Source: an uncultured Syntrophaceae bacterium (lineage in GTDB: Bacteria; Desulfobacterota; Syntrophia; Syntrophales; Fen-1087). From it: 64,000 nt of DNA. Of this stretch, positions 1 to 33,921 are shown piece by piece. Numbering within the stretch: position 1 is the stretch's first letter; every line of letters begins with the position of its first letter. The translations under genes and the position numbers were made by a program. The stretch covers positions 56 to 64,055 of the forward strand of contig CAYWTL010000001.1 in the NCBI GenBank assembly GCA_964460245.1, in the 5' to 3' direction. The notes under the pieces are model-generated. The model searched no databases. It saw only the letters and a program-made list of their open reading frames with translations, and was not told the origin of the DNA.

Positions 1-81
1 GTAGACCATGAAGGTCCATTTAGCCTGGGTGGTGATTCGGCTACCTGCCCTACCTGCTCTGTCTTCTCCAGCCTTTTCCAT
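1..81 (-). CDS. 5' end of an unidentified gene running off the left edge (partial)
   Basis: On the minus strand, ATG (81-79) is preceded by GGAGG 5 nt upstream. The frame stays open to position 1 (MEKAGEDRAGRAGSRITTQAKWTFMVY...). It is too short for any family call. Confidence 0.35.
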   Translation of the reverse strand, partial: MEKAGEDRAGRAGSRITTQAKWTFMVY

Positions 82-358
82 ATGCGCCTCCTTTTTTGGA
101 GGCATGGTAAATGCTGATAAAAACAAAAGTCTAAGAACAAGGCGTCTATAGACGCTATAGACACGATAGGCAGAGATTATTTATCTCCGATACCGCCGTG
201 CAGCATCATGAGGTCAAGGAGAAGGCGCTGATTTACAGATGTTTTTAAATTGACAGTTTGGCCGATCTCATCTATTCTGAAAGTGGAATTGAATTGTTTT
301 CGTAGGATATTTCGGTTTGTGGATGCGGAAACGATTCCAAGAAAAGGGAGGGTGAAAC

Positions 359-658
359 ATGTCGCTGACAGCCCAAAAACTGGATTACCCCTATATCACG
401 GCGGATCCCGGTATTGCCGGAGGGCGGCCGGTGATCGCGGGGACCAGGATCACCGTCAACTGCATTGCCGGATATTACCAGCTCGGCATGAGCATAGACG
501 AGATCCTTGACAGCCTTCGCCACCTGACCCCATCCCAGGTCCATTCCGCCCTGGCCTATTACTTCGACCACCAGGACGAAATCAACGCGGACCTGGAAGA
601 GGCTGGAAACGTCGAATACTGGAAGAGTCAGGTCCAGGCTCATCCTGCGCGGCAATAG
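359..658 (+). CDS. DUF433-family small protein (antitoxin-like partner of the downstream PIN-like gene)
   Basis: 99-aa ORF with GGGAGGG 6 nt upstream of the ATG. The sequence DPGIAGGRPVIAGTRITV..ILD matches my memory of the DUF433 signature. The next gene follows 14 nt later. Confidence 0.75.
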   Translation: MSLTAQKLDYPYITADPGIAGGRPVIAGTRITVNCIAGYYQLGMSIDEILDSLRHLTPSQVHSALAYYFDHQDEINADLEEAGNVEYWKSQVQAHPARQ

Positions 659-672
659 CGTAACGGCGACCG

Positions 673-1011
673 ATGAAACTGAAACTCTTCCTGGACGAGG
701 ATATTCACACCGGCCTGTCCCATGCCTTACGGCAGAGGGGATATGATGTCGTCCACGCCCAGGATCTGAAGCGAAAAGGAAAATCAGACAGCGAGCAACT
801 CGCCTTTGCCGTTCAGGAAGAACGCTGCCTCGTCACCTTCAACGTCCGGGACTTTGTCCATCTCCACAATGAGTATGCGGCACAGAACCGGGAACACTGG
901 GGGATCATCGTTTCCCGACAGATGCCCATCGGCGAGACGCTCAGGCGACTGCTGAAGAAGGTCGGTCTGGCAACCCGGGAGGATTTAAGGAACCGGGTCG
1001 AGTTTTTGTGA
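673..1011 (+). CDS. DUF5615-family PIN-like protein (putative toxin)
   Basis: 112-aa ORF. The N-terminal KLFLDEDI and the acidic residues typical of Mut7-C/PIN-like DUF5615 are present. DUF5615 is classically paired with DUF433. Confidence 0.7.
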   Translation: MKLKLFLDEDIHTGLSHALRQRGYDVVHAQDLKRKGKSDSEQLAFAVQEERCLVTFNVRDFVHLHNEYAAQNREHWGIIVSRQMPIGETLRRLLKKVGLATREDLRNRVEFL

Positions 1012-1190
1012 TAAACGCGGATAGGGGACAGGGGACAGGCGGAAATGGCGGCCGTAGATGTAACTAAAAGGTAACCGCCGCATCCGAAGACAAACCCATA
1101 AAACCGAATCTGATCCAAAATGCTCTTTCTAACTGCTTGATACATAAGCGATTAATTTATGATGGGGAATCGCCTATTTTAAATTTTCGT

Positions 1191-1255
1191 CTTCAAATCC
1201 GGTGTGGGGCGCTAAAACCGTCCCAGGTGGGTTCGATTCCCATGCACTTCCGCCA
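1191..1255 (+). tRNA. Truncated tRNA-Sec (selC) 3' portion, from anticodon loop to CCA; no 5' half present
   Basis: CTTCAAATCC GGTGTGGGGCGCTAAAACCGTCCCAGG TGGGTTCGATTCCCAT GCACTTCC G CCA aligns almost base for base with the E. coli selC 3' part (CTTCAAATCCAGTTGGGGCCGCCAGCGGTCCCGGGCAGGTTCGACTCCTGTGATCTTCCGCCA). It has the UCA anticodon, a long variable arm, an 8-nt acceptor strand, discriminator G and CCA. The complementary GGAAGTGC acceptor 5' strand is absent in the 100 nt upstream. Confidence 0.7.
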
Positions 1256-1601
1256 ATTTATTTTCAAGCACTTAGTGCATGTCATCTTTTTATACCCTGT
1301 CACCCATCAATGCGGTGTCTTCCTTTTTTGTATAGTTGGCGATTCATTGATGGTATTATCCAAGATGTCAACTGCTTTAAATTTGTGAGAAGGAGCAAGG
1401 TGGGCGTAACGGAGGGTCATCGTCAAGGTCTTATGGCCTTCTGAGTAACGCGGAAGCATTAGACTGCCGAGCCGCTTCCGAGTACATTTCTGAGCAATCG
1501 CGACCGCGGCAGCGCGATTATCGCATGATTCGAGCGTCTCCGGCCGTCTTAACGATTAGAGCAGAGAAGGTTGACGATTGGTTTACGAATACGGATTGAA
1601 C

Positions 1602-3419
1602 CTATTTCTGGATACTGCCGAGTAGTTCATCGGCGATACTCGGATTTTCGAGCCGCATAATACTCTCTTCCGAACGGCCGAAGCTTAAGAGGTTGATGCT
1701 CCCATACCAAACGATCCTCTGATCAAAGATCGCGAGTTTCTGATGAATGTTCGATTTGAACACTACATTGACACCTGCGGCGTGGAAGAGGGACAGTGCT
1801 TCTTCCAGAGATGTCCGATCCTTCTCCCGAAAATCGGATGCCGGTCTTGTAACGACAATCACCTTGACATCACGTCCCCTCGCAGAGGCCAGTAAAGGAA
1901 GCATCTGCGACACTCGCCTTTTTGTAACAAAGGGGCTGACGATCAGGATCTCCCGAGCCACAGTCAAGAGATCATTTTGGTAAACCGACAGAAATGTTGT
2001 GTTATCGAAAATAATGTCTATCGATCTACCGGAAACGATTTCCGCCCTCGCCTTGTATCCGATTGCAGAGTATCCGACCAGCCGCTTGTGGTACATCTTC
2101 TCCAGCATGGGGACGTGGACGTCAATGTAGTCATAGACCCGGACCTCCCGCTTGCCTTCATAGAGTCGGTGAAGCCGGCCCGCGTATTGTTGGAGCGTTC
2201 CTTTCCAGGAGATGGGCATGGCCAGAAAAAGCGTATCCAGGCGGGGCTCGTCGAATCCCTCGCCGATATATCTCCCGGTCGCAATCAGAGTCAGCGGCCT
2301 GTCGGCAGGCGCTTCAGAAACCTTTGCCAACGCTTCCCGGGCTTCTTTCGCTCTCTTGCCCCCTGTCAGGGCAATCAAGTCCGGGATCTGTTCCCGTAAT
2401 CTCTCCGCCAACAAGGCCACATAGGCGGTTCTCTCGGTGAGCACCAGGGCGTTACCGCCGCTTTGGAAGCAACGGACCACGTCCTCGACAATTCGCTCAT
2501 TTCTCGGTTCGTTCAAGGCGATGGCGGCGTAGAGTCGCTGGATCGACGGTTCCTTCCCTTCTTCCAGCGGAGCCCGGAAGCTCGTCAGTCGAGGAATGAC
2601 ATAATGGTCGAAGGGTCTCTTCTCCGCCTGCTTTCTGGCGTCCACTCGGTAACGGATCGGCCCGCAATGCATAAAGATGATCGGATGATGGCCATCTTGA
2701 CGCGTCGGGGTGGCTGTTAAGCCATAGACGTATTTTGCGTGAACGCCCTTGAGGATCTGCTCGAAGCTGAATGCCGGTACATGATGACATTCATCGACGA
2801 TCAACATGCCGTAATTCTTGATCAACGCCTTGACCTCATCGCTGCTGTTTAAAGACTGCATGATCGCCACGTCAATGATGCCGCTCGGACAGGACTTGCC
2901 TGCCCCGATCTGGCCGATAAGGCTTTGCTTCCTTTTGCGTCCCCTCTTCTTCTCCAAAAAGGGCAAGGCTTTGTCGATCTCCAGGAACTCGGATAGTTTC
3001 GCCGTCCACTGAGAGAGTAACTGCCTGCGGTGCGTCAAAATCAGCGTACTGACTTTTCGTTCGGCGATCAGCTTCGCGGCGATGACCGTTTTGCCGAAGG
3101 CCGTGGTTGCCGAAAGAACACCGATGTCGTGTTTCAGTATTTCTTCTGCCGCAGTGTTCTGCTCCTCTCTCAGGTTCCCCTTGAATGTGATGTGGATGCA
3201 CCTTCCCGAACAGGTATGATCCGACCATGCAGTCCTGACGCCGGCCTCGGCAAGCAGGCCCTCGACATCGGCGCCGCACCCTCTGGGCAGGCACAGGTAT
3301 TCCGGGGTTTCATCCGAACAGGAGATGACCCTCGGCTTGTCATAGGTCGGCAGCCGCAATGCCTGGGCCTTATAAAACTCCGGGTTTCTGAAGGCGGCCA
3401 GCCTTTTGAGCGTATTCAA
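1602..3419 (-). CDS. SF2 (ResIII/DEAD-like) helicase with a C-terminal single-HKD PLD/NucT-like nuclease domain
   Basis: Helicase motifs are present: TAFGKT (I), VDECHH (II), LTATP (III), GEGFD...QYAGRLHR (V/VI). The C-terminus has HQKLAIFD...GSINLL (HxKxxxxD + GSxN). The start is a TTG in the same frame as the upstream AEP ORF. Confidence 0.85.
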   Translation of the reverse strand: MNTLKRLAAFRNPEFYKAQALRLPTYDKPRVISCSDETPEYLCLPRGCGADVEGLLAEAGVRTAWSDHTCSGRCIHITFKGNLREEQNTAAEEILKHDIGVLSATTAFGKTVIAAKLIAERKVSTLILTHRRQLLSQWTAKLSEFLEIDKALPFLEKKRGRKRKQSLIGQIGAGKSCPSGIIDVAIMQSLNSSDEVKALIKNYGMLIVDECHHVPAFSFEQILKGVHAKYVYGLTATPTRQDGHHPIIFMHCGPIRYRVDARKQAEKRPFDHYVIPRLTSFRAPLEEGKEPSIQRLYAAIALNEPRNERIVEDVVRCFQSGGNALVLTERTAYVALLAERLREQIPDLIALTGGKRAKEAREALAKVSEAPADRPLTLIATGRYIGEGFDEPRLDTLFLAMPISWKGTLQQYAGRLHRLYEGKREVRVYDYIDVHVPMLEKMYHKRLVGYSAIGYKARAEIVSGRSIDIIFDNTTFLSVYQNDLLTVAREILIVSPFVTKRRVSQMLPLLASARGRDVKVIVVTRPASDFREKDRTSLEEALSLFHAAGVNVVFKSNIHQKLAIFDQRIVWYGSINLLSFGRSEESIMRLENPSIADELLGSIQK

Positions 3420-3449
3420 CCCCCTCTGGGAAATTCCCTCCTTTTCGAT

Positions 3450-4508
3450 TTAAAGCATATTCGCTTTGACCAGCCGCACTTCCTGCGGGAAATCACTCCC
3501 GGACCATCGCATCCGAACCGACTCCCACGGTTTTCCGGCTTCCTCATCGTCCGCCCGAAGCACTCCCAGTTCGTTTCCGGGACTCAACCGCGGGATAAGT
3601 CCCGCGATCTCCTCTTCGGACAATTTTCCGATGCCGGCCATGAAACCCCATTGGTCCTCATAAGGACGGAAGTTCTCATCCACGAAGACGCTTTTGCCTT
3701 GCTCCCTGGCCGTCTTCTGGAGGGGAAGAGCGATAAGGTTTCCGAAGCCACCCTTCGGCAAGGTGTCCTGATTGGGGAAGAAGCGGTCGTAAGATTTGAA
3801 GGTCAGTTCATGCCTTCGGCTCATGGCACAGGTCAGGAGGGCGGAACCAAACTTCCGCGCCAGGCCTGCGGGAAGGGGCTCCATAAAGAAAAACCAGGCA
3901 TGCGCCCCGTTTCCGGAACGGGAACGCTCCAAGGCCACGGGGATGCCGAAAGTATTGCATACTTCCCTGAGCGCGACGCAGTCCATTTGCCAACCTTCAT
4001 CGTCAAAATCGATGGCCAGAAGATGGCACAGATCATCCCGGCGCAGGGGGTAGAGGCCGGCGACAACACTCCCTCGGAGATGTGCCTCGATGACCTTTTC
4101 GTCCAGAGGATCGTATGATGGGTGAGGACAGTCAAAGCATTTCACTGTCGGTTTTCGGCAGATGCCCGCTTTCCATTCGTTTCGACAAACCGGTGCGTAT
4201 CCTACCCTGCCCTCTCGGTTCTGCCATCTCTTGGCGTACACATCCGCCCGTCCCTTGAACAGAGACATGAACAAGTGGATCTTTCCCGCCGCATTGAGTT
4301 GAGTGAGGATTCCCGAAGGATATTCCGCATTCGGAACATCCGATCTTTCATTTGCCGAAAACAGATGGGACTTAGGGTCTTGATCAGGATTCGGCAATCG
4401 ATCAGTAATCCCCAACCTTGCCTTCAGACGCTCGTTCTGTTCCCGTAGAGCGCTGTTTTCGGCAAGCAACGCCCGGTATTTTTGAAGCAATCCACTATCA
4501 TTTTCCAC
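3450..4508 (-). CDS. Archaeo-eukaryotic primase (AEP/PrimPol)-like domain protein with an N-terminal coiled coil; resembles TOTE-type conflict-system primase domain
   Basis: AEP motifs are present: AIDFDD (DxD) and GNGAHAWFFF (sGxGxH). A Cys-rich CRNEW..C..KC.DCPH segment is also present. The ORF ends in TAA exactly 30 nt upstream of, and in frame with, the helicase/PLD ORF. Confidence 0.7.
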   Translation of the reverse strand: MENDSGLLQKYRALLAENSALREQNERLKARLGITDRLPNPDQDPKSHLFSANERSDVPNAEYPSGILTQLNAAGKIHLFMSLFKGRADVYAKRWQNREGRVGYAPVCRNEWKAGICRKPTVKCFDCPHPSYDPLDEKVIEAHLRGSVVAGLYPLRRDDLCHLLAIDFDDEGWQMDCVALREVCNTFGIPVALERSRSGNGAHAWFFFMEPLPAGLARKFGSALLTCAMSRRHELTFKSYDRFFPNQDTLPKGGFGNLIALPLQKTAREQGKSVFVDENFRPYEDQWGFMAGIGKLSEEEIAGLIPRLSPGNELGVLRADDEEAGKPWESVRMRWSGSDFPQEVRLVKANML

Positions 4509-4544
4509 AGAGCAGCCCTCTGTCTGTCTTCCCTCAGAAACACT

Positions 4545-5759
4545 TCATCGAGACAAGGTGGGATACAGATCCGGGAAAAACCAGCTCGCGGCATGGATCG
4601 GGAACCCAAGACGAACGTCGCCTTTCGGCGTACTCGAAATGAGCAGCCCATCCATGATAAGTTGTCCCAGGAGACTTCTCCCCGTCCGTTCTTTGAGTCC
4701 TGACGCCTCGATGACGGCGCCCCGGGCTGCTTCACCCTTCACCAATACCTCCTGGAGCATTCGGGCCGATTCATTCCTCAAAGCTTTCTCCCCTGCAGGG
4801 CCGGGGATGATGCCGGAGCCGCGGAGTTCAATGTATCGCCGGATGCGTTCAACCAACTCTTCCAATCGCAGCAGGCCCCCCATGTATTCCACTTGGTCGA
4901 GACAGGCCTCCAGGAAGAAGCGGCAAAAAGAAATCAGCCCCTCATTGGACAGGTTACCCCTGCCGTCCAGATCATTCCGGCGAGGAGCATCGGCCTGAGA
5001 AAGGGCGGACTTGTATTCAATATTTCTCCGGGCCAACCCCCGGCTGACCGACCAGAGGCCGAAGCCACGGACAGGTATCCGGTGAAGGTAGGACTCGGTG
5101 AATAGGCGCGCCACCCGGCCGTTGCCGTCGAGAAAGGGGTGAATCCACATCAACCGATGGTGGGCCGCAGCGGCTGCAACAAGTTTCAGCGAACCATGAT
5201 GCCTGTCCGGCGCATAAAAGCCACTAAAACGGTCGAGAAACGCCTTTAGCGCCCCATGCTCCGGCGGTTGGTGGTAGCCTACTCGGACGGACTCTTCACG
5301 GAGTTCTCCCGGCACGACCCGCCTTTCCTTTCCCGTTTCAGGATTCTTCACAACCCGAAACTCCTCCGGCAGTTGCCGGTAAAACTCACGGTGGAGGTCA
5401 CAGAGAAATTCCCGGCCGGTTACATAGACTTCCGGTTCTTCCTGCAGCTTCTTCTCCATATCCCTCTGGACGGTGATATGGGCAACACTTTCCATCTGAA
5501 GATTGCGTTTTGCCGGTTCGGAATCATACTCCTTCTGCATGGCGCGAACGATGTCGTAAGGGTGGGTGTTATGACCCTCGATCAGATTGGAATAGTAGCT
5601 GTTGATGATCCTGAGCAGCTCATGAAGCGTGTTGAGTGTCACGGGATGCTGCCGGGTGCCGAGCGCAGCGGATTTTTGGATCACCTCTAGGGCGAGGTCT
5701 TGAAGATCGTCCGCCTCTTCGGGCAGGAGTGGCGTCATTTGGTGGATTTGCGTTCGCAT
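4545..5759 (-). CDS. Fic/DOC family protein (AMPylase-type) with an N-terminal inhibitory-helix motif
   Basis: Canonical Fic motif HPFLDGNGRVARL. The upstream SNLIEG matches (S/T)xxxE(G/N). GAGGGAG is the SD before the ATG at 5759. Confidence 0.9.
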   Translation of the reverse strand: MRTQIHQMTPLLPEEADDLQDLALEVIQKSAALGTRQHPVTLNTLHELLRIINSYYSNLIEGHNTHPYDIVRAMQKEYDSEPAKRNLQMESVAHITVQRDMEKKLQEEPEVYVTGREFLCDLHREFYRQLPEEFRVVKNPETGKERRVVPGELREESVRVGYHQPPEHGALKAFLDRFSGFYAPDRHHGSLKLVAAAAAHHRLMWIHPFLDGNGRVARLFTESYLHRIPVRGFGLWSVSRGLARRNIEYKSALSQADAPRRNDLDGRGNLSNEGLISFCRFFLEACLDQVEYMGGLLRLEELVERIRRYIELRGSGIIPGPAGEKALRNESARMLQEVLVKGEAARGAVIEASGLKERTGRSLLGQLIMDGLLISSTPKGDVRLGFPIHAASWFFPDLYPTLSR

Positions 5760-5897: not shown

Positions 5898-6235
5898 ATA
5901 GCTAGACTGGCCAGTTAAACGATTTTCAAGAAAATGACCGGTCTTTAAGGTCTATTTTGCAATGAGAACAATGGGTTAGTAATGAAAGCGACTGTAATTA
6001 AAATTGTAACCGTCGTGTAACTAAACTGTTACCGTCCTAACCGAAAATTTTCCTAGATGCTGATCGAAACACGCTACAATTATGTTGCATTTTCACAAAA
6101 AATTCCTGATTGCTGTTCATGTGGTTTTACCTCGAAGAAAGTCACAATATTCTCAATGTAATTAATTTAATTAGATTTTTGGAACAACCTTTCAAGCAGT
6201 ACCATCTATCGTGTTACAATCTATCGCGTGAACAC

Positions 6236-6264: not shown

Positions 6265-6305
6265 GTTCTTGACATTTTGATGGACGGGAGAGACAAAATA
6301 CTTTG

Positions 6306-9300
6306 ATGGCCGACCAGAAATCCATAGGAATCAAACTTCAAGACGATTATCCCGAGCGGATCAAAAGGCTCCGTGCCGGTCTCGGTCTTACTCAGCAATC
6401 GTTGGCTAATGCACTTGGAGTCTCCTTTGCCACCGTCAATCGATGGGAGAACGGCCAAACCAAGCCCTCGCAACTCTCCTGGAATCAGCTTCGTCAATTG
6501 GAGATGAGTCTCAAGGAAGAAGCGGCTCCCGATCGATCAAATAACGAGAAACCCCCACCGCCCATTCTCGATTTCACGGCCTCACCGGAGATCGTGAAAA
6601 TGCTTGCCGAAGGCGAGAGACTCTCCTTCGGCCATCTGATGAACCCTACCTTCGCCACGGAAATCTCAAGCATCGATCCTCTGCCCCACCAGCGCATCGC
6701 CGTCTATGATCACATGATGAAGCAGGCAAGGCTTCGATTTCTATTGGCCGACGATGCGGGCGCGGGGAAAACCATCATGGCCGGCCTTTACATCCGCGAG
6801 ATGCTTTCCCGTCGCCTGCTGAAGCGCATCTTGATCGTGCCACCTGCCGGTTTGGTGGGAAACTGGCGACGCGAGCTTTTGAAGCTTTTCAGCCTCTCTT
6901 TCCACATCGTCAGCGGCAACGATACCCGTCACGGGAACCCCTTCGCCGGTGAAAACGGTGATCAGGTCATCGTCAGTATCGATACCCTATCCAGCTCACG
7001 CGTTTTTTTCTGTCTGAAGGATCCCCGCGTTGCCCCTTACGACCTCGTCATTTTTGACGAGGCGCACAAGTTGGCGGCAAACCGTGGTCCGGATCTCCGC
7101 ATTCGGAAGACAGAACGTTACTGTCTGGCCGAGGCCTTAGCCGGCGTGAAAAGCAATGATCGACGCTGGCAATTGGACTGGAGCGCCTACCATCTCTTGC
7201 TGCTCACAGCCACGCCTCATATGGGCAAGGATTATCCTTACTACGCCCTCTGGCGGCTCTTGGAGCCCGAGGTTTTGTCCACGCCAGATGCCTTCGGCGA
7301 ATATCCGGCGGATCAGCGGCAAGCCCATTTCATCCGTCGGACGAAAGAGGAAATGGTGTACCCCGATGGCCGCCCCCTCTACCCCAGGCGTATCTCCGAT
7401 ACCCTGGGCTACCTTTTGACTCAAGGTGACGTCAGCGAACAACGGCTTTATGACGAAACAACGGACTACCTGCGCTACGTATACAACAAGGCCAAGCTCC
7501 TGAACCGGGAGGCGGCAAGACTGGCCATGAGCGTATTTCAGCGACGCATGGCCAGTTCGACATATGCACTCCTGCGCTCCTTTGAACGGCGCGTCGAAAA
7601 ACTGAGTATCCTTATCGACGAGATCCAGGACGGAAAACTTAGTCCCGAAGCACTTGTTGCCCGCCAGCAACGGTTGCACCTGGAAGACGACGTCTTCGAT
7701 GCGAAAACAGCCGACGACGAGATTTCCGACGAGGAACGCGAGGAAAATGAAGCGGCCGAGGACAGGCTCCTACAAGGCGTTGTCGCCGCCTCATTGTCAG
7801 ACCTGCTGGCGGAAAGGGAACAGGTTCGGCAACTTCTCGACCTGGCGAAGCAGGTTTATGAATCAGGTCAGGAATCAAAATTCGAAAAGCTTCGGGAAGC
7901 ATTGACCGATCCCCGTTACAGCGACGAGAAATTCATCATCTTTACCGAGCATCGCGACACCCTCCTTTTCCTCGTGAGACGCTTGAGTGGGATGGGATAC
8001 ACCGACCAGATCGCCCAGATCCATGGTGGTATGCACTATAGCCAGAGGGAAGAAGAGGTCGAACGATTCCGAAAACCGGTCACCGAGGGAGGTACGCGTT
8101 TTCTGATCTGCACGGATGCAGCGGGCGAAGGCATCAATCTCCAGTTCTGTTGGATCATGATCAACTACGACGTTCCCTGGAATCCGGCCCGGCTGGAACA
8201 GCGGATGGGGCGCATCCATCGTTACCTCCAAAAGCACGATCCCGTGATCATTCTGAACCTGGTTGCCCCATCCACCCGTGAAGGAAAGGTTATCAAAACA
8301 CTCCTCGACAAGCTGGAAAAAATCCGCAAGGAACTTCAGTCCGACAAGGTTTTTGACTGTATCGGCCGCTTCTTTGAAGGGGTATCCATCAAGCAATACA
8401 TGGAGCTGGCCGTGACCGAAGACGCTGAAACGGTCGCCCGTGAACTGGATGGACGGCTGACAAAGGAACAGATTGAAGCCTTGGCAGAACGGGAGAGATC
8501 TCTCTATGGCGGTGGCGGCGACGTGGCCGGCGAGCTTCCGCGCCTTCGCGCCGACCTGGAGCGGGAAGTGCACTTCCATTTGCTCCCCGGCTATGTGCGG
8601 CAGTATATCGAACAGGCCGCCCCGCTCGTGAATATTGAGATCGCGGGCGATCCAGGCGGCATCTTCTCCTTGCATCCGAAACGATTGGGCGCCATGGATG
8701 CGCTATTACCGGATCTGGAGTTATACCCCGAAAAGACGCGGGAACGGTTTTCCGTTTCCCGGACCACGGATCTGCTGGCACCTGATGTAAAAACGGGGAA
8801 GGACGATTTCATTTGGCTCCATCCCGGTGATCCGGTTTTTGAACGATTCCGATCTCTGGTAGCCGAGTACCTGGGCAATCAAGGTAAGCGCGGCGCCGTC
8901 TTTATCGACCCCAATACCGAAAAGCCCTATCTCTTTCACATGGCCCTCATCCATATCGTTCGCAAGGCCGATCCGGAAATCCCAAGACTGGCCAAGGACG
9001 AGTTGCTGGATTGTCGCCTGGTCGGTGTGAAACAATATGAAGGCGCGGAAATTTCACTCTGCCCCGTCGAACATCTTCTCCTTTTGCGGGGTGGAAGTGG
9101 CCTGCCTGCATCAGCTCAGCGACTGGCCGTGCGGGCCAACGAGGAAAAGGGTCATGTCCTGGCCTACCTTTCTGAACGAGTGGCCCGGGAATTGGCGCTT
9201 GATCGACGGCAGAGCTTACTGGATAGCCTCCCCGAACGAGAGAATTTTCTGCAAAGAGGCTTTGATTGCCAGGAAGCAGAGTTGGCGCTGTCTCGCGCCC

Positions 9301-9902
9301 GGCATGCTGAAAAGGCGCGGTCGGGCAACCGGAAAGCTATCGAAGCCTTGGAAGAGATAAAGCGCCAGCAGCGGCAACTGGTAAGCCTCCGGGAAGGCGC
9401 CATGGCCCTACTGCAGCGAGAACCGGAACTCATCGCTCCAGGTTCGATCGCTTTCGTAGCCCATGCCTTGGTCGTTCCGTCTTCCGATCCGGCGGATCAG
9501 GAACAGTATGACGTCAATGTTGAGCAAGTGGCGATGAAGGTTGCCCAAGCCTTCGAGGAGGCGGCCGGCGCCAAGGTGCTCGATGTCCATACGCCAGAAC
9601 GAGCCCGCGCAGCAGGCCTTCCGGAGAATCCTGGATTCGATCTCTTCTCACTGCGGTCGGAAAATGAAAAACTGGGCATCGAGGTCAAAGGGCGAGCGGG
9701 AACAGGCAACATCGAGGTATTAGCCAATGAATGGGCCAAGGCCTGCAACATGCGGCAGGATTACTGGTTCTACGTAGTATATGACTGTGCCACACCAAAC
9801 CCCAGGCTAGTGCGGGTTCAAGATCCCTTCGGAAGCTTGCTCGCCAAGAGCAAGGGCAGCGTTTTGATCAGCGCCAAGGAAATCGGACAGGCAGCAATTT
9901 AG
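6306..9902 (+). CDS. XRE-HTH / SNF2-family helicase / C-terminal DUF3883 (PD-ExK-like) fusion protein
   Basis: N-terminal HTH: LGLTQQSLANALGVSFATVNRWENGQ. Helicase motifs: DDAGAGKT (I), FDEAHKL (II), LTATPH (III), GEGINLQ...QRMGRIHRY (V/VI). C-terminus: GFDLF...IEVKG...YWFYVVY. The ATG at 6306 follows the TTG at 6303. Confidence 0.9.
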   Translation: MADQKSIGIKLQDDYPERIKRLRAGLGLTQQSLANALGVSFATVNRWENGQTKPSQLSWNQLRQLEMSLKEEAAPDRSNNEKPPPPILDFTASPEIVKMLAEGERLSFGHLMNPTFATEISSIDPLPHQRIAVYDHMMKQARLRFLLADDAGAGKTIMAGLYIREMLSRRLLKRILIVPPAGLVGNWRRELLKLFSLSFHIVSGNDTRHGNPFAGENGDQVIVSIDTLSSSRVFFCLKDPRVAPYDLVIFDEAHKLAANRGPDLRIRKTERYCLAEALAGVKSNDRRWQLDWSAYHLLLLTATPHMGKDYPYYALWRLLEPEVLSTPDAFGEYPADQRQAHFIRRTKEEMVYPDGRPLYPRRISDTLGYLLTQGDVSEQRLYDETTDYLRYVYNKAKLLNREAARLAMSVFQRRMASSTYALLRSFERRVEKLSILIDEIQDGKLSPEALVARQQRLHLEDDVFDAKTADDEISDEEREENEAAEDRLLQGVVAASLSDLLAEREQVRQLLDLAKQVYESGQESKFEKLREALTDPRYSDEKFIIFTEHRDTLLFLVRRLSGMGYTDQIAQIHGGMHYSQREEEVERFRKPVTEGGTRFLICTDAAGEGINLQFCWIMINYDVPWNPARLEQRMGRIHRYLQKHDPVIILNLVAPSTREGKVIKTLLDKLEKIRKELQSDKVFDCIGRFFEGVSIKQYMELAVTEDAETVARELDGRLTKEQIEALAERERSLYGGGGDVAGELPRLRADLEREVHFHLLPGYVRQYIEQAAPLVNIEIAGDPGGIFSLHPKRLGAMDALLPDLELYPEKTRERFSVSRTTDLLAPDVKTGKDDFIWLHPGDPVFERFRSLVAEYLGNQGKRGAVFIDPNTEKPYLFHMALIHIVRKADPEIPRLAKDELLDCRLVGVKQYEGAEISLCPVEHLLLLRGGSGLPASAQRLAVRANEEKGHVLAYLSERVARELALDRRQSLLDSLPERENFLQRGFDCQEAELALSRARHAEKARSGNRKAIEALEEIKRQQRQLVSLREGAMALLQREPELIAPGSIAFVAHALVVPSSDPADQEQYDVNVEQVAMKVAQAFEEAAGAKVLDVHTPERARAAGLPENPGFDLFSLRSENEKLGIEVKGRAGTGNIEVLANEWAKACNMRQDYWFYVVYDCATPNPRLVRVQDPFGSLLAKSKGSVLISAKEIGQAAI

Positions 9903-9915
9903 GACAGGTAATTCC

Positions 9916-10248
9916 ATGAACCCTCTTCTGTCCGCAGCAACCATTATGGCTCTCAGTTATCGGGCGCTTCAGCTTAAGGAGCAATTCAGGGATGATAACC
10001 TGTTTTCATTTTCGATTGAACTCTTGACAGATTGCCGTCATAGCACGTATGAACTATTCATTACCCCCCTCGGTAGCTTCGGCGAAAAGGCGCAGAGTAG
10101 CCCCGCAATGGGCGGCTCTTGCTTTATCCATACAACCCATTCGGATTCCGACCAACATATAAGACAATCAGCCGATTTGTATGTATTGTTTAGGGTCTAT
10201 GCTCACAAGAAGGGTCATTGTGTTTCTATGCCAAGGAGGACTGACTGA
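9916..10248 (+). CDS. Small hypothetical protein (110 aa)
   Basis: The ORF starts 14 nt after the helicase stop and ends in TGATG, overlapping the next start. It has no recognisable motif, and whether it is coding is uncertain. Confidence 0.3.
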   Translation: MNPLLSAATIMALSYRALQLKEQFRDDNLFSFSIELLTDCRHSTYELFITPLGSFGEKAQSSPAMGGSCFIHTTHSDSDQHIRQSADLYVLFRVYAHKKGHCVSMPRRTD

Positions 10249-11441
10249 TGAATAATCAAGAATTGGAAGAACTTCTCTTCGATTTGGAATCGGATCGGAT
10301 AGAGCGAAAAGAATCTATCGCCGATATGAAAAAGATCCGTCAGGCCGTCTGCGCCTTTGCGAATGATTTGCCCAATCATCGGCAGCCTGGCGTAATCTTC
10401 ATCGGGGCTCGAGATGACGGTAGTTGTGCAGGTCTACAGATTACAGATCAATTGCTACTCACGCTTTCTGATATGCGATCGGATGGCAATATACTGCCGC
10501 TTCCCATGATAACTGTCGAAAAAAGAGTGTTAAGGGGCTGTGAACTGGCGGTCGTCATAACGGAACCTTCGGATCTCACGCCCGTTCGTTTTCAGGGCAG
10601 GGTATGGATTCGTGTGGGACCGAGGCGCGCAATCGCTACGGCAGAGGAAGAGCGACGCTTGAATGAAAAGAGGCGCTCGCGCGATCTTCCTTTTGATCTC
10701 TATCCCCTAAGCTCTGCATCAATCCAGGATTTGGATCTGGATCTTTTCCAAAGAACCTATCTCTCCGCAGCTATTTCACCGGATATTCTTGCAGAGAACC
10801 AACGATCGACGGAACAGCAGTTGGCCTCATTGCGTTTTATAACGCCCGATAGCCCTGCCATACCCACGGTAGCCGGTTTGCTGGCGGTCGGCAAATCCCC
10901 GAACGATTTCATCCCTGGCGCCTATGTGCAGTTCTTGAGATTTGAAGGTGCGGAGCTGACAGATCCCATTGCCGACCAAAAATCCATATCCGGCCCATTA
11001 TCACAGGTGCTCAGGGAACTTGATGAAATTTTCAAGGCAAACATCCGTATTCCAACAGATATTGTTTCAGAAGCCACTGAAGTGAGACGGCATGACTATC
11101 CCATTACCGCAATCCAACAATTCGTGAGAAATGCCGTCATGCATCGCGATTATCAGACATCGAACGCACCGGTCCGCGTGACTTGGTTTGTCGACCGTGT
11201 CGAAATTCAGAATCCCGGCGGCCCGTTCGGACAGGTCACCAGACAGAATTTCGGCCAACCTGGCATCACGGATTATCGCAATCCCAATATTGCTGAAGTA
11301 ATGAAGAATCTCGGTTATGTGCAACGATTTGGCGTCGGAATTCAGATTGCCCGTAAGGCTCTTGCCGACAACGGAAATCCGCCTGCGGATTTTCATATTG
11401 AAGACAACCATGTACTGGTGACGATCCGGAGGAGAACATGA
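10248..11441 (+). CDS. AlbA_2 (Schlafen-like) DNA/RNA-binding domain protein with an HATPase_c_4-like C-terminal domain
   Basis: The N-terminal ELLFDLESDRIERKES...A.AN is typical of the AlbA_2/AAA_4 family. The C-terminal FVRNAVMHRDY...RNP.IAEVM..LGYVQRFGVG is also typical. A strong AAGGAGGA SD precedes the start. The stop overlaps the next ATG (ATGA). Confidence 0.7.
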   Translation: MNNQELEELLFDLESDRIERKESIADMKKIRQAVCAFANDLPNHRQPGVIFIGARDDGSCAGLQITDQLLLTLSDMRSDGNILPLPMITVEKRVLRGCELAVVITEPSDLTPVRFQGRVWIRVGPRRAIATAEEERRLNEKRRSRDLPFDLYPLSSASIQDLDLDLFQRTYLSAAISPDILAENQRSTEQQLASLRFITPDSPAIPTVAGLLAVGKSPNDFIPGAYVQFLRFEGAELTDPIADQKSISGPLSQVLRELDEIFKANIRIPTDIVSEATEVRRHDYPITAIQQFVRNAVMHRDYQTSNAPVRVTWFVDRVEIQNPGGPFGQVTRQNFGQPGITDYRNPNIAEVMKNLGYVQRFGVGIQIARKALADNGNPPADFHIEDNHVLVTIRRRT

Positions 11442-12436
11442 GCATTCCCGTCATTGCCTTTTTCAATAACAAAGGAGGGGTAGGAAAAACATCCCTCGTC
11501 TATCATGTGGCCTGGATGATGAGCGAACTTGGGCTACAGGTCTTAGCAGCAGATCTTGACCCCCAATGCAATCTCACCGCAGCCTTTCTTGACGAGGACC
11601 AACTGGAGTCGTTATGGCCCGACAATGAGCAGCCGCCAAGCACGATTTACGGTGCCATTCGTCCTCTGCAGACGGGCATCGGCGATGTGACTGAACCGAA
11701 ACTTCAGAATCCGGTGGAAAATCTCTCGCTACTTGCCGGCGATATGCTGTTGTCCGGATTTGAAGACGGCCTTTCCGAAGCATGGCCCAAATGCCTCGAT
11801 CGGGATGAACGCTCGTTTCGAGTTATATCATCCTTCTGGCGCATCATCCAAAAAGGAGCTGCACAAAAAGATGCTGAAGTCATCCTAATTGATTTGGGGC
11901 CGAATCTCGGCGCAATCAACCGCGCGGCCTTGATCGCATCGGATTATGTGGTCATCCCTCTGGGACCGGATCTCTTTTCTTTGCAGGGTCTGAAAAACTT
12001 GGGACCGGCTTTGCGGAACTGGCGGGAAGGATGGAAAGAAAGACTGCCGAAGAATCCTTCAAAGAACTTGATTCTTCCGAAAGGGGATATGCAACCGTTA
12101 GGATACATCGTCATGCAGCATTCCGTGCGTCAGGACCGTCCGGTGAAAGCGTATGATAAGTGGGTATCCAGAATTCCTTTCACCTACGAGCGTTTTGTTC
12201 TCGATCGGGATACAAAGCTTCATCGAAGAATAGAAGGTGATCCCAATTGTTTTTCTCTTATCCGCCATTACCGGAGCCTCATGCCCATGGCCCAAGAAGC
12301 AAGAAAACCCATGTTTTTTCTAAAGCCAGCCGATGGCGCAATAGGTGCTCATGCCAGGTCTGTTCAGGATTCCTACAATGATTTCAAAGAGTTAACGAAA
12401 AAAATCCTCTCAAAGGCAGGGATTCTTCAAATATGA
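11438..12436 (+). CDS. ParA/Soj-like AAA ATPase (long form, 332 aa)
   Basis: Deviant Walker A FNNKGGVGKTS, followed by AADLDPQCN. ATGA overlaps occur at both ends. Confidence 0.85.
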   Translation: MSIPVIAFFNNKGGVGKTSLVYHVAWMMSELGLQVLAADLDPQCNLTAAFLDEDQLESLWPDNEQPPSTIYGAIRPLQTGIGDVTEPKLQNPVENLSLLAGDMLLSGFEDGLSEAWPKCLDRDERSFRVISSFWRIIQKGAAQKDAEVILIDLGPNLGAINRAALIASDYVVIPLGPDLFSLQGLKNLGPALRNWREGWKERLPKNPSKNLILPKGDMQPLGYIVMQHSVRQDRPVKAYDKWVSRIPFTYERFVLDRDTKLHRRIEGDPNCFSLIRHYRSLMPMAQEARKPMFFLKPADGAIGAHARSVQDSYNDFKELTKKILSKAGILQI

Positions 12437-15400
12437 CCGATACACCACGTTTGATTGAACACGCCTTTCCCTTGAAGCAGGCGTCCCTGGATTCGGTACA
12501 TGAGAAGAACGTTCGCCATGGTCATATCTCGACCCTCCATATCTGGCCGGCGCGACGGCCACTGGCAGCCTGTCGGGCAGCCCTGATCGCTACGCTGCTG
12601 CCCGACCCAAGCGCCCAGCCAAAGCCCGATGGCATGTCCGATGAAGAGTGGCATCAGGAAATCATCCGTCTGCGTCGGGAACTCTGCGAGAAGATCGGCG
12701 GCAAGACGGTGAAGACCGTCGAAAAGAAGAAGATGCCGAACGGTCAGATCGTCGAACGGGAGAAGGAAGAAACGTCTGGCGGCATCCTCCATTGGGGCTT
12801 GGAGACAAAGAACAAAGAGCTTTTGGATTGGTTCCGTCAGGAGATTCGCAAGGCCCACGGCGGTCGGGCGCCGAAGATCCTCGACCCCTTCGCCGGCGGC
12901 GGGGCGATCCCTCTGGAGGCGATGCGGCTGGGTTGCGCGGCAACCGCCGTGGACATCAATCCCGTGGCCTGGTTCCTTCTGAAATGCACCCTCGAATACC
13001 CCCACCGATTGGCGGGTAAGACCCTTCCACTTCCTGATTTCATCCTCGACGACGAAGCCTTCATGGAGGTCTTTTACAAGGCCCATTCCCATCTGATCGG
13101 CCGCACCAAGAAGACCAAACAGCAAAAGGAAAAAGAGGAAAGGGCGCCAGGCCTTTTCGACAAGCCGGATTCCGGGAGGGCGCCGAAGGCGGATCTCGCC
13201 TGGCATGTTCGGGCCTGGGGCCAGTGGGTGCTGAAAAATGCCCGCCGCGAGCTGGCTGCCTACTATCCGGCCTATGCGGATTTTGAGCCCATCAGCGGCA
13301 CTTTCCCCAAGCCCTATGAAAAACAGCCTTTGCGGCTCGTGCCGCTAAGCAAGGACGGCACGCCGGATATCGAAGCCCTCAACATCGATTTCAGCGAGGA
13401 ATACCTCCGGGACAAGAGCAATCCCCGCTGGGTAGCCAAACCGACGGTAGCCTACCTCTGGGCGCGAACGGTGTCATGCAAGAACTGCCGTGCCGTCATC
13501 CCGCTCCTCAAGACCCGGTGGCTCTGCAAAAAGGATAAGAAACGGGTTCTCCTCACCATGGCGCCGAATGCCGACAGGTCCAGCGTCACCTTCGGCATCG
13601 AGGCAAATGTCCCGGTCAAGGGCGGCAACGCGGCCCAGCGCCGGGAACAGGACAAGCAGCTCGGCAGCGGCACCATGTCCCGCTCCGGGGCCAAGTGCCC
13701 CTGCTGCGGGACGATCATGACCATGGAAGACATCCGTCTGGAGGGGAAGGCCGGCCGCCTGGGATCGGTCAATACAGCCGTGGTCGTGGACGGCCAGAAG
13801 GGCAAGGAGTATCGCCTGTCCATGGATCATGAGATACGGATGGCGGCCGAAGCCGAGAAGGCTGTTGCCGATGTCTTTGCCGAGATCCCCTTCGGGCTGC
13901 CGGAAGAACCAACACCCAAAGGTGGAAGTGGCGCTAGTAGGGCTTTCTCAGTGGACGGCTATGGTTTCAACCAATGGCAAAAGCTCTTCACGCCTCGTCA
14001 GCTCTTGGCTATGGGAACATTCGTGAAATCGACGCGGGCTATTATCAAGAACTCTCAATTAGGAAAAAACAATGAACTTGTGCCTATCTTAGCCTACCTA
14101 GCGGCAGCAGTAGACAGGTTGTCCGACAGATGTGCCACACTCTGCACGTGGGATCAAGGATACACCAAGGTTAACCATGTGTTCAATAGGTATGCACTAC
14201 CAATTACATGGGACTTCTGTGAAGGAAATCCGCTGTCTGAAACAACGGGGAATTACGGAGATGCTGTAACGTGGATATGCAAATATATTGACCACGCAAT
14301 TGATGCCTGTCCTAACGCAACGGCCCCAATTGTTCGTCAAGAATCAGCCATTTCCACCAATATCAATGAGATTTTCGATATCATTGTTACCGATCCTCCA
14401 TACTATGACGCCATTCCTTATTCGGATCTCATGGACTTCTTCTATGTTTGGCTCCGCAGGGTCCTCTTCGGAATCACTGAAGACTTTGATACTGCCTTTC
14501 AGGAGACGCTATCTCCAAAGTGGAATCACAGTACAAGTGATGGTGAATTGATTGACGACGCCAGTCGTCATGGAGGGGATAAAAATAAATCCAAAACAGT
14601 CTATGAAGAGGGTATGTTTCATGCTTTTCAGAAATGTTCCGAAGCATTAAATGATGAAGGAAGATTAGTGATCGTCTTTGCACATAAACAACCAGATGCG
14701 TGGGAAACTTTAGTATCAGCTATTATACGTGCCGGATTCACTGTTGACGGTAGTTGGCCCATTCAGACTGAAATGAGTACCGGCCTTCGCAATTATGGAC
14801 GGGCATCACTTGCATCCTCAGTTTGGCTTGTCTGTAAAAAACGGTCTGCAACGGCTAAACCCGGATGGGACAATCAGGTCCTGGAAGAGATGCGGAAAAA
14901 GATCCGGGAGCAGCTCCGCGAGTTTTGGGACGCAGGGATCCGCGGTCCCGACTTCGTCTGGGCGGCGACGGGCCCGGCATTAGAGGCTTATAGCAGGCAT
15001 CCAGTCGTCCGCAAAGCCACCGAACCGGGTCCGATGACGGTCAGCCAGTTTCTCACCCACGTCCGAAGAATGGTTGTGGATTTCGTAGTTGGCCGAGTAC
15101 TTTCTGGAGACGGAACCGCTTCTCTGGCACCGGAGGAGATAGACGCGATGGGCCGGGATCGTCTGGATGAGCCAACAGCTTACTACCTGCTTCATCGTCA
15201 CGACTTTGGTATGGAGGAGGCTCCGGCTGGGGCGTGCATCCTCTACGCGGTCTCTTGTGGTATCTCGGACAAGGAACTAGCCGACACCTGGGACCTCATC
15301 AGTTCTGCAAAAGGGAAGTCGTCAGAGGAAGCGGAAGAAAAGGCCGACGCCGATGCGGAGGCGGACCCGGAAGCCTCGGAGGAATCGGGAAACAAGGTGA

Positions 15401-15723
15401 AGCTCAAAACCTGGGCGCAGCGGAAGGGTCGCTCTATGGGATACGAGGCCCCCGGAGGCAAGCCCGTTCCTCTCATCGATCGCGTTCACCGCCTGATGCA
15501 CCTTTGGAAGGCGGGCGACCTTCACAAGGTGGACGGATATCTCGATGACAACGGCCTACGGCGCCAGGAGCTTTTCCGGCGGCTCCTGCAATCCTTGATC
15601 GAACTGTCGCCCGCCGGAAGCGAGGAAAGATCGCTTCTTGAATCCATCAGCAACCATATCCATGCCAAAGGCGCCGTCAATGATCGGCAGGTAGGCATGG
15701 CCTTCGACGAGAATGGAGCATGA
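12433..15723 (+). CDS. DUF1156-type (COG1743-like) Zn-ribbon DNA methyltransferase (N6-A/N4-C class)
   Basis: The N-terminal IEHAFPL...HIWPARRPLAACRA is the DUF1156 signature. Motif I is LDPFAGGGAIPLEA. Zn-ribbon pairs are CKNC and CPCC. Motif IV is VTDPPYYD. Confidence 0.9.
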   Translation: MTDTPRLIEHAFPLKQASLDSVHEKNVRHGHISTLHIWPARRPLAACRAALIATLLPDPSAQPKPDGMSDEEWHQEIIRLRRELCEKIGGKTVKTVEKKKMPNGQIVEREKEETSGGILHWGLETKNKELLDWFRQEIRKAHGGRAPKILDPFAGGGAIPLEAMRLGCAATAVDINPVAWFLLKCTLEYPHRLAGKTLPLPDFILDDEAFMEVFYKAHSHLIGRTKKTKQQKEKEERAPGLFDKPDSGRAPKADLAWHVRAWGQWVLKNARRELAAYYPAYADFEPISGTFPKPYEKQPLRLVPLSKDGTPDIEALNIDFSEEYLRDKSNPRWVAKPTVAYLWARTVSCKNCRAVIPLLKTRWLCKKDKKRVLLTMAPNADRSSVTFGIEANVPVKGGNAAQRREQDKQLGSGTMSRSGAKCPCCGTIMTMEDIRLEGKAGRLGSVNTAVVVDGQKGKEYRLSMDHEIRMAAEAEKAVADVFAEIPFGLPEEPTPKGGSGASRAFSVDGYGFNQWQKLFTPRQLLAMGTFVKSTRAIIKNSQLGKNNELVPILAYLAAAVDRLSDRCATLCTWDQGYTKVNHVFNRYALPITWDFCEGNPLSETTGNYGDAVTWICKYIDHAIDACPNATAPIVRQESAISTNINEIFDIIVTDPPYYDAIPYSDLMDFFYVWLRRVLFGITEDFDTAFQETLSPKWNHSTSDGELIDDASRHGGDKNKSKTVYEEGMFHAFQKCSEALNDEGRLVIVFAHKQPDAWETLVSAIIRAGFTVDGSWPIQTEMSTGLRNYGRASLASSVWLVCKKRSATAKPGWDNQVLEEMRKKIREQLREFWDAGIRGPDFVWAATGPALEAYSRHPVVRKATEPGPMTVSQFLTHVRRMVVDFVVGRVLSGDGTASLAPEEIDAMGRDRLDEPTAYYLLHRHDFGMEEAPAGACILYAVSCGISDKELADTWDLISSAKGKSSEEAEEKADADAEADPEASEESGNKVKLKTWAQRKGRSMGYEAPGGKPVPLIDRVHRLMHLWKAGDLHKVDGYLDDNGLRRQELFRRLLQSLIELSPAGSEERSLLESISNHIHAKGAVNDRQVGMAFDENGA

Positions 15724-15804
15724 GAACGGAATTATTTCTTGGATGGGAAATTCGGCAGACTGCGTCTGCTGAATTGGTGCGATAACATGAGGAGGGAAAA
15801 ACCG

Positions 15805-18800: not shown

Positions 18801-19101
18801 ATGGCCCTGTGACTTCCCGTCGGCGCAATCGGTCATCCTGAAACCGCCAGCCACGCCGCCCCCCCCGCCTCCGCCCCCGCCGGGACTGACGCTCGGTGCA
18901 GAAGCCGATCTCGAACCATCACAGATTCAAGACCTGGGGGACATCGTTCCCAAGCTTTTGGAAATCAAGAAAACGGGCTTGCCGATGCGGTTTCGTCTGC
19001 GAATCGAGATCGGCGACGGCAAGACCGCGCCTCCTGAAAATGTGGTCAAGGAAGTGAATACCTTGCTTAAGGATGTGAAGGAGGATTTGCAGCTGAAGTA
19101 G
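15805..19101 (+). CDS. DUF499-type (COG1483-like) P-loop ATPase
   Basis: The N-terminal WHEVVKLRDDLRSGDL..FAADL is DUF499-like. Walker A is TYGGGKTHT and Walker B-like is LLLIDEV. I moved the start to the ATG at 15805 (GAGGAGGG SD 8 nt upstream); the longest ORF starts at 15739. A poly-Pro linker (P9) precedes a ~70-aa C-terminal domain. Confidence 0.8.
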   Translation: MTKLPWKPWHEVVKLRDDLRSGDLPLHLFAADLYDVMMQRGKRKVYEDPEQFFALTFPTFNLRRLVRDVMLRLAGKNDKAVRQLELTYGGGKTHTLITLRHLVHDPEKLPKLPAVEEFIQEIGQKPPRCRVAALCFDKLDVEKGMEVVSPSGKTRMLKQPWSVLAWQLAGEEGLKILHADGLPEERETAPAENLLTELLEIPGKEGLGSLLLIDEVLLYARERVGKDVVRLQSLVNFFQYLTQAATKADRCCIVASLLASEPTSEDELGRRIKAQIYDIFQRQREEAVEPVVKEDVAEVLRRRFFKPESLKDREVFRQHVVAALKGITAVDEQTAKQGANAEQRFLDSYPFHPDLTEVLYSKWTQLARFQRTRGVLRIFALALREAEKWDKSPLIGPAVFLNAPKSEGLSEALREMVTVADTEETEGKKQAWTGILDNEFEQAKRIQQESVGLKFREVEQAVVATFLHSQPISQSAKTRELVVLMGSTRPDKIELEKGLYRWSQTSYWLDDLNTSTPEGQLPGTWRLGNRPNLNQMHAVAAKNIPDDTVRARLLDDIGKLKSLTANASAAGVHPHTLPIRPKDIEDDGAFHYAVLGPGAASESGKPSIEAKRFLDETTGSDKPRVYRNAVVLVTPSKDGLELASARVRDYLGWEGVREEIKQQQKDGNVDPARAQTLSINIDKAKGRIPDAIRQAWCIVVTVSEKDEAQSFKITVTDDPHFNIIKSDKRSRMQDTPVTAEALLPDGPYNLWRPGETARRVKDLSGAFAQLPHLPKMIKASAILSTLAEGCGKGIFVLRLVRPDGTSRTWWMTKPDDIALSDPALELVLPASAELGEIPPALLSPNVLPGLWTADEITFQAVTDYFNGKNVVQVEREGYRESLPIPKAAEGVVEKAVASAVESGLLWLLCGPASILGEPIPPGVLNESAKLSAPPAVIAAAEILPENLPGAWKGGYASGLSVSTALSIREKKTLPWKTIKDVIGGALQARFLALSEKSAAWPCDFPSAQSVILKPPATPPPPPPPPPGLTLGAEADLEPSQIQDLGDIVPKLLEIKKTGLPMRFRLRIEIGDGKTAPPENVVKEVNTLLKDVKEDLQLK

Positions 19102-33910: not shown

Positions 33911-33921
33911 GAAGGAGAGCG

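Follow-up and report, generated by a model that had tools for sequence, protein, structure and literature searches.

How does the 3' part of a tRNA gene, cut off from its 5' half, come to lie between two stretches of foreign DNA, and which of the two arrived first? These questions are raised by the selenocysteine tRNA gene (selC, tRNA-Sec) of an uncultured Syntrophaceae bacterium, in a stretch of 64,000 nucleotides (nt) from position 56 to 64,055 of contig CAYWTL010000001.1 (assembly GCA_964460245.1). We refer to this whole stretch as the window and number its positions from its first letter. The 65 nt at 1191-1255 on the + strand are a 3' part of tRNA-Sec, and very probably they were displaced from the chromosomal selC and are now a non-functional scar of the attachment-site (att) type between two foreign segments that accreted there.

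The tRNA-Sec fragment and the DNA to its left

The fragment (CTTCAAATCCGGTGTGGGGCGCTAAAACCGTCCCAGGTGGGTTCGATTCCCATGCACTTCCGCCA) runs from the anticodon loop (CUUCAAA, anticodon UCA) through the 3' strand of the anticodon stem, the long variable arm and the T arm to the 8-nt 3' strand of the acceptor, the discriminator G and CCA. It is identical at 65 of 65 positions to two intact tRNA-Sec genes, L093 and L254 (L-numbers are labels of comparison loci and contigs from genomes, metagenomes and IMG/VR). Scanning public genomes, one per species, with the 24-nt pattern from the T loop to CCA gave at least 120 loci, mostly in Desulfobacterota. ARAGORN reports an intact tRNA-SeC at 107 of the 121 pattern matches listed, which makes its negative result on the window fragment meaningful: it finds no tRNA across the whole 64 kb. 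In blastn comparisons with the selC loci among the matches listed, the fragment reaches E values down to 2e-28, far beyond chance, and in almost all of these comparisons the similarity sets in exactly at 1191. The 33 nt upstream of this position match the 5' half of tRNA-Sec at 8 of 33 positions, which is the chance level, and neither a second copy of the fragment, nor a tRNA-Sec 5' half, nor a tRNA-Lys fragment is found elsewhere in the 64 kb.

At gathering thresholds Rfam gives no match at the fragment. With permissive settings RF01852 (tRNA-Sec) scores 37 bits (E = 9.8e-6) against a gathering score of 47, and every mismatched pair in the alignment involves the 5' half (acceptor, D and anticodon stems). 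The fragment has neither the full cloverleaf with a 5' half nor a score at the gathering threshold that would mark an intact tRNA-Sec, and an intact tRNA at 1191-1255 is ruled out by ARAGORN and by the Rfam scores. A preliminary description of this DNA, made from its letters, had taken the 65 nt for the part of selC from the anticodon loop to CCA, with the similarity ending in that loop and the 5' half missing. It had proposed an ARAGORN run and had named a covariance-model call of an intact tRNA-Sec as the observation that would overturn its reading; no such call was obtained by either program, and the identification stands.

Immediately to the left lie an arm of spacer DNA and, before it, two adjacent small genes with a 14-nt gap, DUF433 and DUF5615, which form a putative type II toxin-antitoxin module (domain assignments and coordinates are collected in Table 1). 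DUF5615 homologs with 85-95% identity occur in several different contexts, and L151-L161 and L233 have DUF433, DUF5615 and the arm in co-linear order. The window starts within the gene for a clostripain-like peptidase C11, the last gene of a conserved cargo block whose order in relatives is radical SAM, metallophosphoesterase, MBL hydrolase, PLD nuclease, HU and C11; this block is kept next to Sec fragments in 80 metagenome contigs. Window positions 1-1260 align with 9332-10582 of L158 at 84% (L158/L159 belong to a Syntrophales metagenome-assembled genome (MAG)) and are co-linear with L233 at 80%, the shared part comprising the C11 start, the toxin-antitoxin pair, the spacer and the 65-nt fragment. 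The last ~45 nt of the arm (1146-1190, ...TAAGCGATTAATTTATGATGGGGAATCGCCTATTTTAAATTTTCGT) are well conserved. Neither the window nor the block proteins show synteny with the selC loci of GTDB genomes among the at least 120 loci listed, and the C11 block has no match in the viral contigs, which gives no evidence of a phage nature.

In L162 (143-3017) a two-gene cassette with another arm replaces DUF433/DUF5615 between C11 and a Sec fragment of the anticodon-loop class. To judge from our own reading of the ORF (open reading frame) translations alone, this cassette may encode a macro-domain protein and a DarT-like/HD protein, a DarTG-like pair.

The selC site in relatives and in elements of the same class

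The closest named relatives of the toxin-antitoxin proteins and of the aspartyl-tRNA synthetase (AspRS) of the window are MAGs of Syntrophales and Deltaproteobacteria. SRR8925802 contains a 1.8-kb piece identical to DNA of the window. The window AspRS (~31.8-33.9 kb) has 96% identity with a protein on many contigs, which are of two kinds. Type B contigs (L243, L244, L245, L249 and L251) carry Mfd, NadA, a ferredoxin-type protein, MoeA and an intact tRNA-SeC on the + strand, followed by a 153- to 164-aa integrase remnant on the - strand, a 98-aa ORF, AspRS, GatA, GatB and the trp operon. Type A contigs (L242, L246, L247, L248 and L250) have no tRNA and bear a Fic gene and the C11 block to the left of the same 98-aa ORF; in these the block is preceded by DnaJ and a TPR protein, a 143-aa protein and SLT stand between HU and peptidase C11 (- strand), and Fic comes last.

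From a point within the T loop of selC rightwards, L242 matches L243 at 99.985% over 13.2 kb, and the other type A contigs show the same identity to type B, whereas to the left of this breakpoint L243 has the rest of the tRNA and L242 an unrelated arm with TTTCCCCC repeats. The other junction is found on the short contig L252, in which MoeA and an intact selC are followed by an arm with the same TTTCCCCC repeats. The comparison of these three contigs indicates that, in the sister species, an element with the C11 block at its right end has entered selC, and that strains without it exist. The conservation of the block on the 80 contigs had also made it a candidate for native backbone beside selC; this was ruled out by its being an insertion in L242 relative to L243.

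L253 and L254 likewise retain an intact selC behind MoeA. In L253 it is followed by a different island (Fic, Rep_O, PIN and type I restriction genes), and in L254, a contig of 704 kb, by a hydrolase and the trp operon. Positions 11305-11404 of L254 match window 1191-1291 at 94% over 101 nt, including the identical 65 nt and the next 36 nt, so that the window fragment and its flank correspond to the normal selC 3' end and downstream flank in this lineage. Left of 1191, the relatives have the tRNA 5' half and MoeA, and the window has the 179-nt spacer, DUF433/DUF5615 and the start of the C11 gene. The DNA after selC differs in every relative. The gene orders seen in relatives point to an ancestral backbone of Mfd, NadA, Fer4 protein, MoeA, selC, a short flank, AspRS, GatA, GatB and the trp operon. 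In L098 (6623-7240) the intact selC is followed by an insert of ~500 bp encoding a small secreted-looking protein and then by a 14-nt direct repeat, ATGCACTTCCGCCA; insert and repeat precede a flank of the window type, as a mini-insertion at the acceptor end.

By the measures that Islander applies to displaced tRNA gene DNA (tDNA), the window has a 3' tDNA part that starts at a known crossover sublocation, here the first base of the anticodon loop, and an unoccupied site is present in related genomes (L254; L243 vs L242). The preliminary description had called the fragment an att-type remnant at an integration hotspot and had suggested a comparison with relatives that lack the insertion. Such relatives, with an intact selC at the homologous site, were found (L243-245, L249, L251, L253 and L254), and the hotspot is borne out by them, by the variable DNA downstream of selC and by the recurrence of the same breakpoint in other genomes and in viral contigs.

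The 24-nt tRNA-Sec end is present on 29 IMG/VR contigs, in all of them as a fragment; 6 of these fragments start at the anticodon loop with CTTCAAA, as in the window (L123, L125, L138, L142, L148 and L150), and the rest in the T loop. Among the matches listed, at least five genomic loci carry further orphan fragments of the anticodon-loop class (L057, L077, L086, L089 and L107). An integrase-sized ORF adjoins the fragment in L123, L150, L142 and L057. It is a tyrosine integrase by Pfam PF00589 in L123, L142 and L057 (E 1e-28 to 1e-31), and the L150 ORF is a close homolog of the L123 integrase. The variable-arm allele of L123 is that of the intact L243 selC (8895-8992), and the allele of L150 is that of the intact L253 selC (11271-11368). 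These identities show directly that 3' parts carried by elements are taken into the host tRNA-Sec gene, whose 3' part is evidently rewritten by mobile elements. L243 and L253 are two strains of one species with different selC variable-arm alleles.

It is also evident that the left arm is not confined to selC. L160/L161 and L154-157 also have the toxin-antitoxin pair and the spacer, but their similarity to the window ends at 1204, and there the arm (GATGGGRAATCGCCTATTTTAARTT...) passes, within the anticodon loop, into the 3' part of tRNA-Lys(UUU). This tRNA(UUU) piece is a sub-threshold tRNA in Rfam with a broken 5' half, and ARAGORN makes no call. L158 and L160 have 6.85 kb in common to the left of the junction (CMAS to spacer) and differ beyond on both sides. 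The anticodon stem-loops of the two tRNA genes, CGGACTTCAAATCCG and CGGACTTTTAATCCG, are two anticodon bases apart, with 13 of 15 positions identical. One arm on two tRNA fragments at the same position argues for related elements, or for one element with two targets, that arrived by site-specific integration and not by deletion. The tRNA-Lys(UUU) fragments joined to the arm lie at 10508-10556 in L160 and 10509-10556 in L154; in L154, moreover, a truncated integrase C-terminus follows closely on the - strand, and the toxin-antitoxin pair has Mu-like phage genes on its left.

That an island lies to the left of the fragment, as had been proposed from the letters of the window, is supported by analogy: the C11 block is an insertion in the sister species and the left arm is also joined to a tRNA-Lys fragment. 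The placing of DUF433/DUF5615 at the tip of this putative island is likewise supported, in that the pair and the arm travel together.

The defence region and the order of events

To the right of the fragment and its flank, 52 nt past CCA, lies a remnant of a tyrosine integrase gene that is convergent with the tRNA fragment and that the preliminary description had not noted. Its end reads ...GHKTLTMTLRYAHLAPSHKFKAVDILD... (box II region) and the rest of the gene is gone. The remnant matches PHROG_1 (integrase, E 7.9e-5) and, in tblastn, the 409-aa integrase of L005; Pfam gave no match on a 72-aa piece, which is too short. Islands in tDNA usually begin on their left with the 3' end of a tRNA gene, behind which come a convergent integrase and foreign cargo, and the position of the remnant beside the fragment ties the defence region that follows to the selC site.

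The G+C content is 51% in 1-1190, 53% in 1256-28311, 59% in 28312-31464 and 64% from 31465 on, and it is 64.5% in the backbone to the left of selC in L243. The homology with the backbone resumes at 31465, with window 31465-43927 matching L242/L243 at 92.7% (12.5 kb). The defence region is not present between selC and AspRS in relatives. The earlier suggestion that this region is a separate acquisition is thus sustained by the integrase remnant, by the G+C content of 53% vs 64% and by the absence from relatives; that it is also the older one would follow from the order of events discussed below. We infer that the DNA from 1256 to ~31.4 kb represents one or more older, decayed islands, together with the mode and order of their entry.

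The defence systems were identified by profile matches alone. HmaA, HmaB and HmaC, which define Hma, are encoded together by PADLOC profiles. The layout within 6303-19101 is unusual for Hma in that HmaA is parted from HmaB and HmaC by three genes, a 110-aa ORF, the Schlafen/AlbA_2 protein and the ParA-like ATPase. DISARM had been considered for the DUF1156, DUF499, PLD and SNF2 genes and was replaced by Hma plus Zac-like after the PADLOC search. The cluster on the - strand at 1602-5759 resembles a TOTE-type conflict system and adjoins the integrase remnant. Between the SoFic gene and HmaA sits a degenerate second copy of the distal arm spacer, with no tRNA fragment after it; an older element probably ended here, in which case the defence region may consist of two islands. 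Within the ParA-like gene, 11754-11768 (- strand) repeat 15 nt of the junction, CGTCTTCAAATCCGG, exactly and in inverted orientation (blastn-short E ~0.003), probably by chance.

Table 1. Features of the window around the tRNA-Sec fragment
Feature	Position	Strand	Basis
Peptidase C11 (clostripain-like) gene, 5' end	1..83	-	C11 N-terminus match; window 1-1260 alignment to L158
DUF433 protein, putative antitoxin	359..658	+	Pfam PF04255, E 2e-20
DUF5615/PIN-like protein, putative toxin, putative terminal cargo of left element	673..1011	+	Pfam PF18480, E 6e-19
Element-side arm (P-arm type spacer), DUF5615 stop codon to anticodon-loop junction	1012..1190	+	conserved in L158, L233, L160/L161, L154-157
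tRNA-Sec 3' part, very probably displaced, attR-type junction of left element	1191..1255	+	blastn, Rfam, alignment to intact genes
selC downstream flank (ATTTATTTTCAAGCACTTAGTGCATGTCATCTTTTT...), same as after intact L254 selC	1256..1295	+	94%/101-nt alignment; also L098, L179, L191
Tyrosine integrase C-terminal remnant, ~50 codons, box II GHKTLTMTLRYAHLAP	1307..1459	-	six-frame translation, PHROG_1, tblastn
Helicase + PLD nuclease	1602-3419	-	Pfam, PADLOC
AEP-TOTE PrimPol	3450-4508	-	PF22548 E 1.5e-100, PADLOC
SoFic-like Fic protein	4545-5759	-	Pfam, PADLOC
Degenerate second copy of distal arm spacer (TGTAACTAAACTGTTACCGTCCTAACCGAAAATTTTCC)	5990..6057	+	42 nt at 93% to L158 10381-10422
HmaA (SNF2 helicase)	6303-9902	+	PADLOC E 1.8e-146
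Schlafen/AlbA_2-like, with HATPase_c_4 domain, also matching pAgo-associated models	10248-11441	+	Pfam, PADLOC
ParA-like	11438-12436	+	Pfam, PADLOC
HmaB, DUF1156 methylase	12433-15723	+	PADLOC E 1.8e-122
HmaC, DUF499 ATPase	15739-19101	+	PADLOC E 1.2e-72
ZacB-like PLD	20532-22625	+	Pfam, PADLOC
ZacC/PDC-M27C-like SNF2 helicase	22635-26120	+	Pfam, PADLOC
RecQ-type helicase	26224-28311	+	Pfam
Acyl-CoA dehydrogenase	29029-30171	+	Pfam
408-aa ORF	30240-31466	+	variable region end

The explanation that we favor as very probable, a displaced selC 3' part between two accreted segments, would involve two steps. An island with a tyrosine integrase beside the tRNA 3' end would first have settled downstream of selC; its integrase would have decayed to the 50-codon remnant, and its cargo would be the low-GC region with helicase-PLD, TOTE PrimPol, SoFic, Hma and Zac-like genes. 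A second element would then have recombined with selC at a site centered on the anticodon loop, as suggested by the junction and by the equivalent event seen in relatives. The tRNA 3' copy of this element would have restored selC to an intact gene at the far left end, beside MoeA, and the old 3' part would have been left at the right end of the element, after its arm and DUF433/DUF5615, with the flank and the older island pushed to the right. The scar would mark the boundary of both segments, closing the left element on its right and opening the older island on its left. With their T arm intact, such scars can probably still serve in this clade as secondary attachment sites.

Several observations weigh against this explanation. 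The intact selC and the integrase of the left element are not seen in the window, and the source contig, 67,849 bp long, extends at most 3.85 kb further. In the homologous loci the 10 kb on the left of the toxin-antitoxin pair contain no tRNA and no integrase, the latter being expected by Islander inside an island, and the intact tRNA is absent from 80 of 80 metagenome contigs with the conserved block. The viral elements of the anticodon-loop class, unlike the window, have their integrase directly upstream of the fragment. Moreover, the C11 block adjoins tRNA-Sec fragments with at least four different arms of two crossover classes (the toxin-antitoxin arm, the anticodon-loop arm of L162 and two T-loop arms); the left element may therefore have a mosaic history, or have undergone repeated events and deletions at its right end. 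Finally, no terminal repeat of the right-hand island was found in the window.

It is unlikely, though it deserves more weight than the other alternatives, that the left element came first and that the defence island entered later, via the intact T arm or the 3' end of the orphan fragment, and is hence the younger of the two. A nested arrangement of this kind is seen in L158 (10513-13867), where an island of 3.3 kb (CopG-like, DUF4172-Fic and two ORFs) separates the 65-nt fragment from a second fragment, of the T-loop class, that has an arm of its own (TTTCCCCCAAATTTCCCCC repeats); the orphan fragment of L158 seems to have acted as a secondary attachment site. The integrase remnant beside the window fragment fits either order of events. 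Against a later entry of the island, no distal T-loop or acceptor repeat is found anywhere in the window; in addition, the intact selC of L254 has the same 3' allele and flank, and fragment and flank look displaced together. The reverse order is thus less likely, because the distal repeat is missing and L254 shows fragment and flank as one pre-existing unit, and we infer that the defence island is older than the left element.

A plain pseudogene, with selC cut by a deletion or by an insertion that was not site-specific and tRNA-Sec lost or kept elsewhere, would account for the missing integrase and intact copy both in the window and in the 10 kb of the homologous loci. We consider it very improbable, since the breakpoint is the first base of the anticodon loop and recurs in independent elements with adjoining integrases, since the identical left arm is found on tRNA-Lys(UUU) at the same loop position, and since the left block is an insertion into selC in the sister species.

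In the window, L158 and L233, 30 of 30 positions in the T arm plus acceptor agree, against ~65% identity in the adjacent spacer, and the differences in the variable arm are compensatory. Given this identity and the alleles shared with intact selC and viral copies, the fragments are best regarded as copies of different functional alleles and not as one drifting relic. That such conservation instead reflects a functional RNA, retained as a split-tRNA half or a tRNA-like element, is barely credible, since the variant arms recur as alleles in intact selC genes and in viral attP copies (L254, L243/L123, L253/L150) and are thus explained by independent captures of functional alleles, since the 5' half is not found in the window, and since the same upstream arm precedes Sec and Lys fragments and so has no specific pairing with both acceptors. 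Split tRNAs are not known to occur in bacteria.

Returning to the displaced selC 3' part, a wider reading is possible but tentative, namely that a Syntrophales element family recognizes the stem-loop shared by tRNA-Sec and tRNA-Lys(UUU) and alternates between the two genes. Such a family would drive the turnover of variable-arm alleles in the only selC, as each integration overwrites the 3' two-thirds of selC with the element-borne copy, and would leave orphan secondary attachment sites for T-loop-class islands, so that defence cargo could accrete without touching the functional gene.

Known systems and significance

The selC-associated islands of Enterobacteriaceae (such as LEE, SHI-2 and PAI-I) mark a recurrent hotspot and use P4-type integrases whose site of action is near the selC 3' end. 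The window shares with them the target gene and a cargo that varies by strain, but its host is a Syntrophales-type deltaproteobacterium, its junction lies in the anticodon loop and its cargo is anti-phage defence, not virulence. As in other defence islands at hotspots, Hma, Zac/PDC-M27-like, SoFic, TOTE PrimPol and helicase-PLD genes are clustered by a tRNA hotspot with a decayed integrase, and nothing unusual was found in the window in this comparison. The attP contigs of IMG/VR (L123, L150, L142/L148, L125 and L138) have the same class of 65-nt fragment, with a tyrosine integrase confirmed or indicated in L123, L142 and L150, and differ from the window, besides the position of the integrase immediately upstream of the fragment, in arms without detectable similarity to window 1012-1190.

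In the principle on which Islander is based, a regenerated tDNA and a displaced fragment mark the ends of an island, and tandem arrays occur (Hudson, Lau and Williams 2015, PMC4383910). Anticodon-centered attP sites account for 2083 of the 3919 Islander islands (PMC4383910), and the same paper cites Williams 2002 (PMC100330) for tDNA-integrated islands. As in the Islander islands, in which a tyrosine-integrase element splits a tRNA gene, restores it by its own copy and leaves a displaced 3' fragment at the far end, the window fragment starts at the anticodon loop in the orientation of the tRNA, and relatives have the unoccupied site. The window differs in holding one end only and in having a junction that would be a hybrid of two accreted elements. 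The mechanism itself is known, the displaced 3' fragment, the anticodon-centered site and tandem accretion being the standard signature of tDNA integration. The host group is new, as are the use of both Sec and Lys(UUU) targets with a single arm and the exchange of alleles with viral contigs.

On this evidence the fragment provides an exact coordinate for an island boundary, with 1-1190 as the right end of a mobile element and ~1256-31464 as a separately acquired, decayed island with defence systems, so that the Hma, Zac-like and TOTE modules are placed in a mobile context. Its recognition is also of use in annotation, where it should prevent a tRNA-Sec pseudogene from being listed as a gene by gene-calling or tRNA-finding programs. 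In syntrophic deltaproteobacteria, a group with a heavy dependence on selenoproteins, the fragment shows selC to be a hotspot of integration, and it offers a small natural data set on elements that evidently rewrite part of an essential single-copy tRNA gene.

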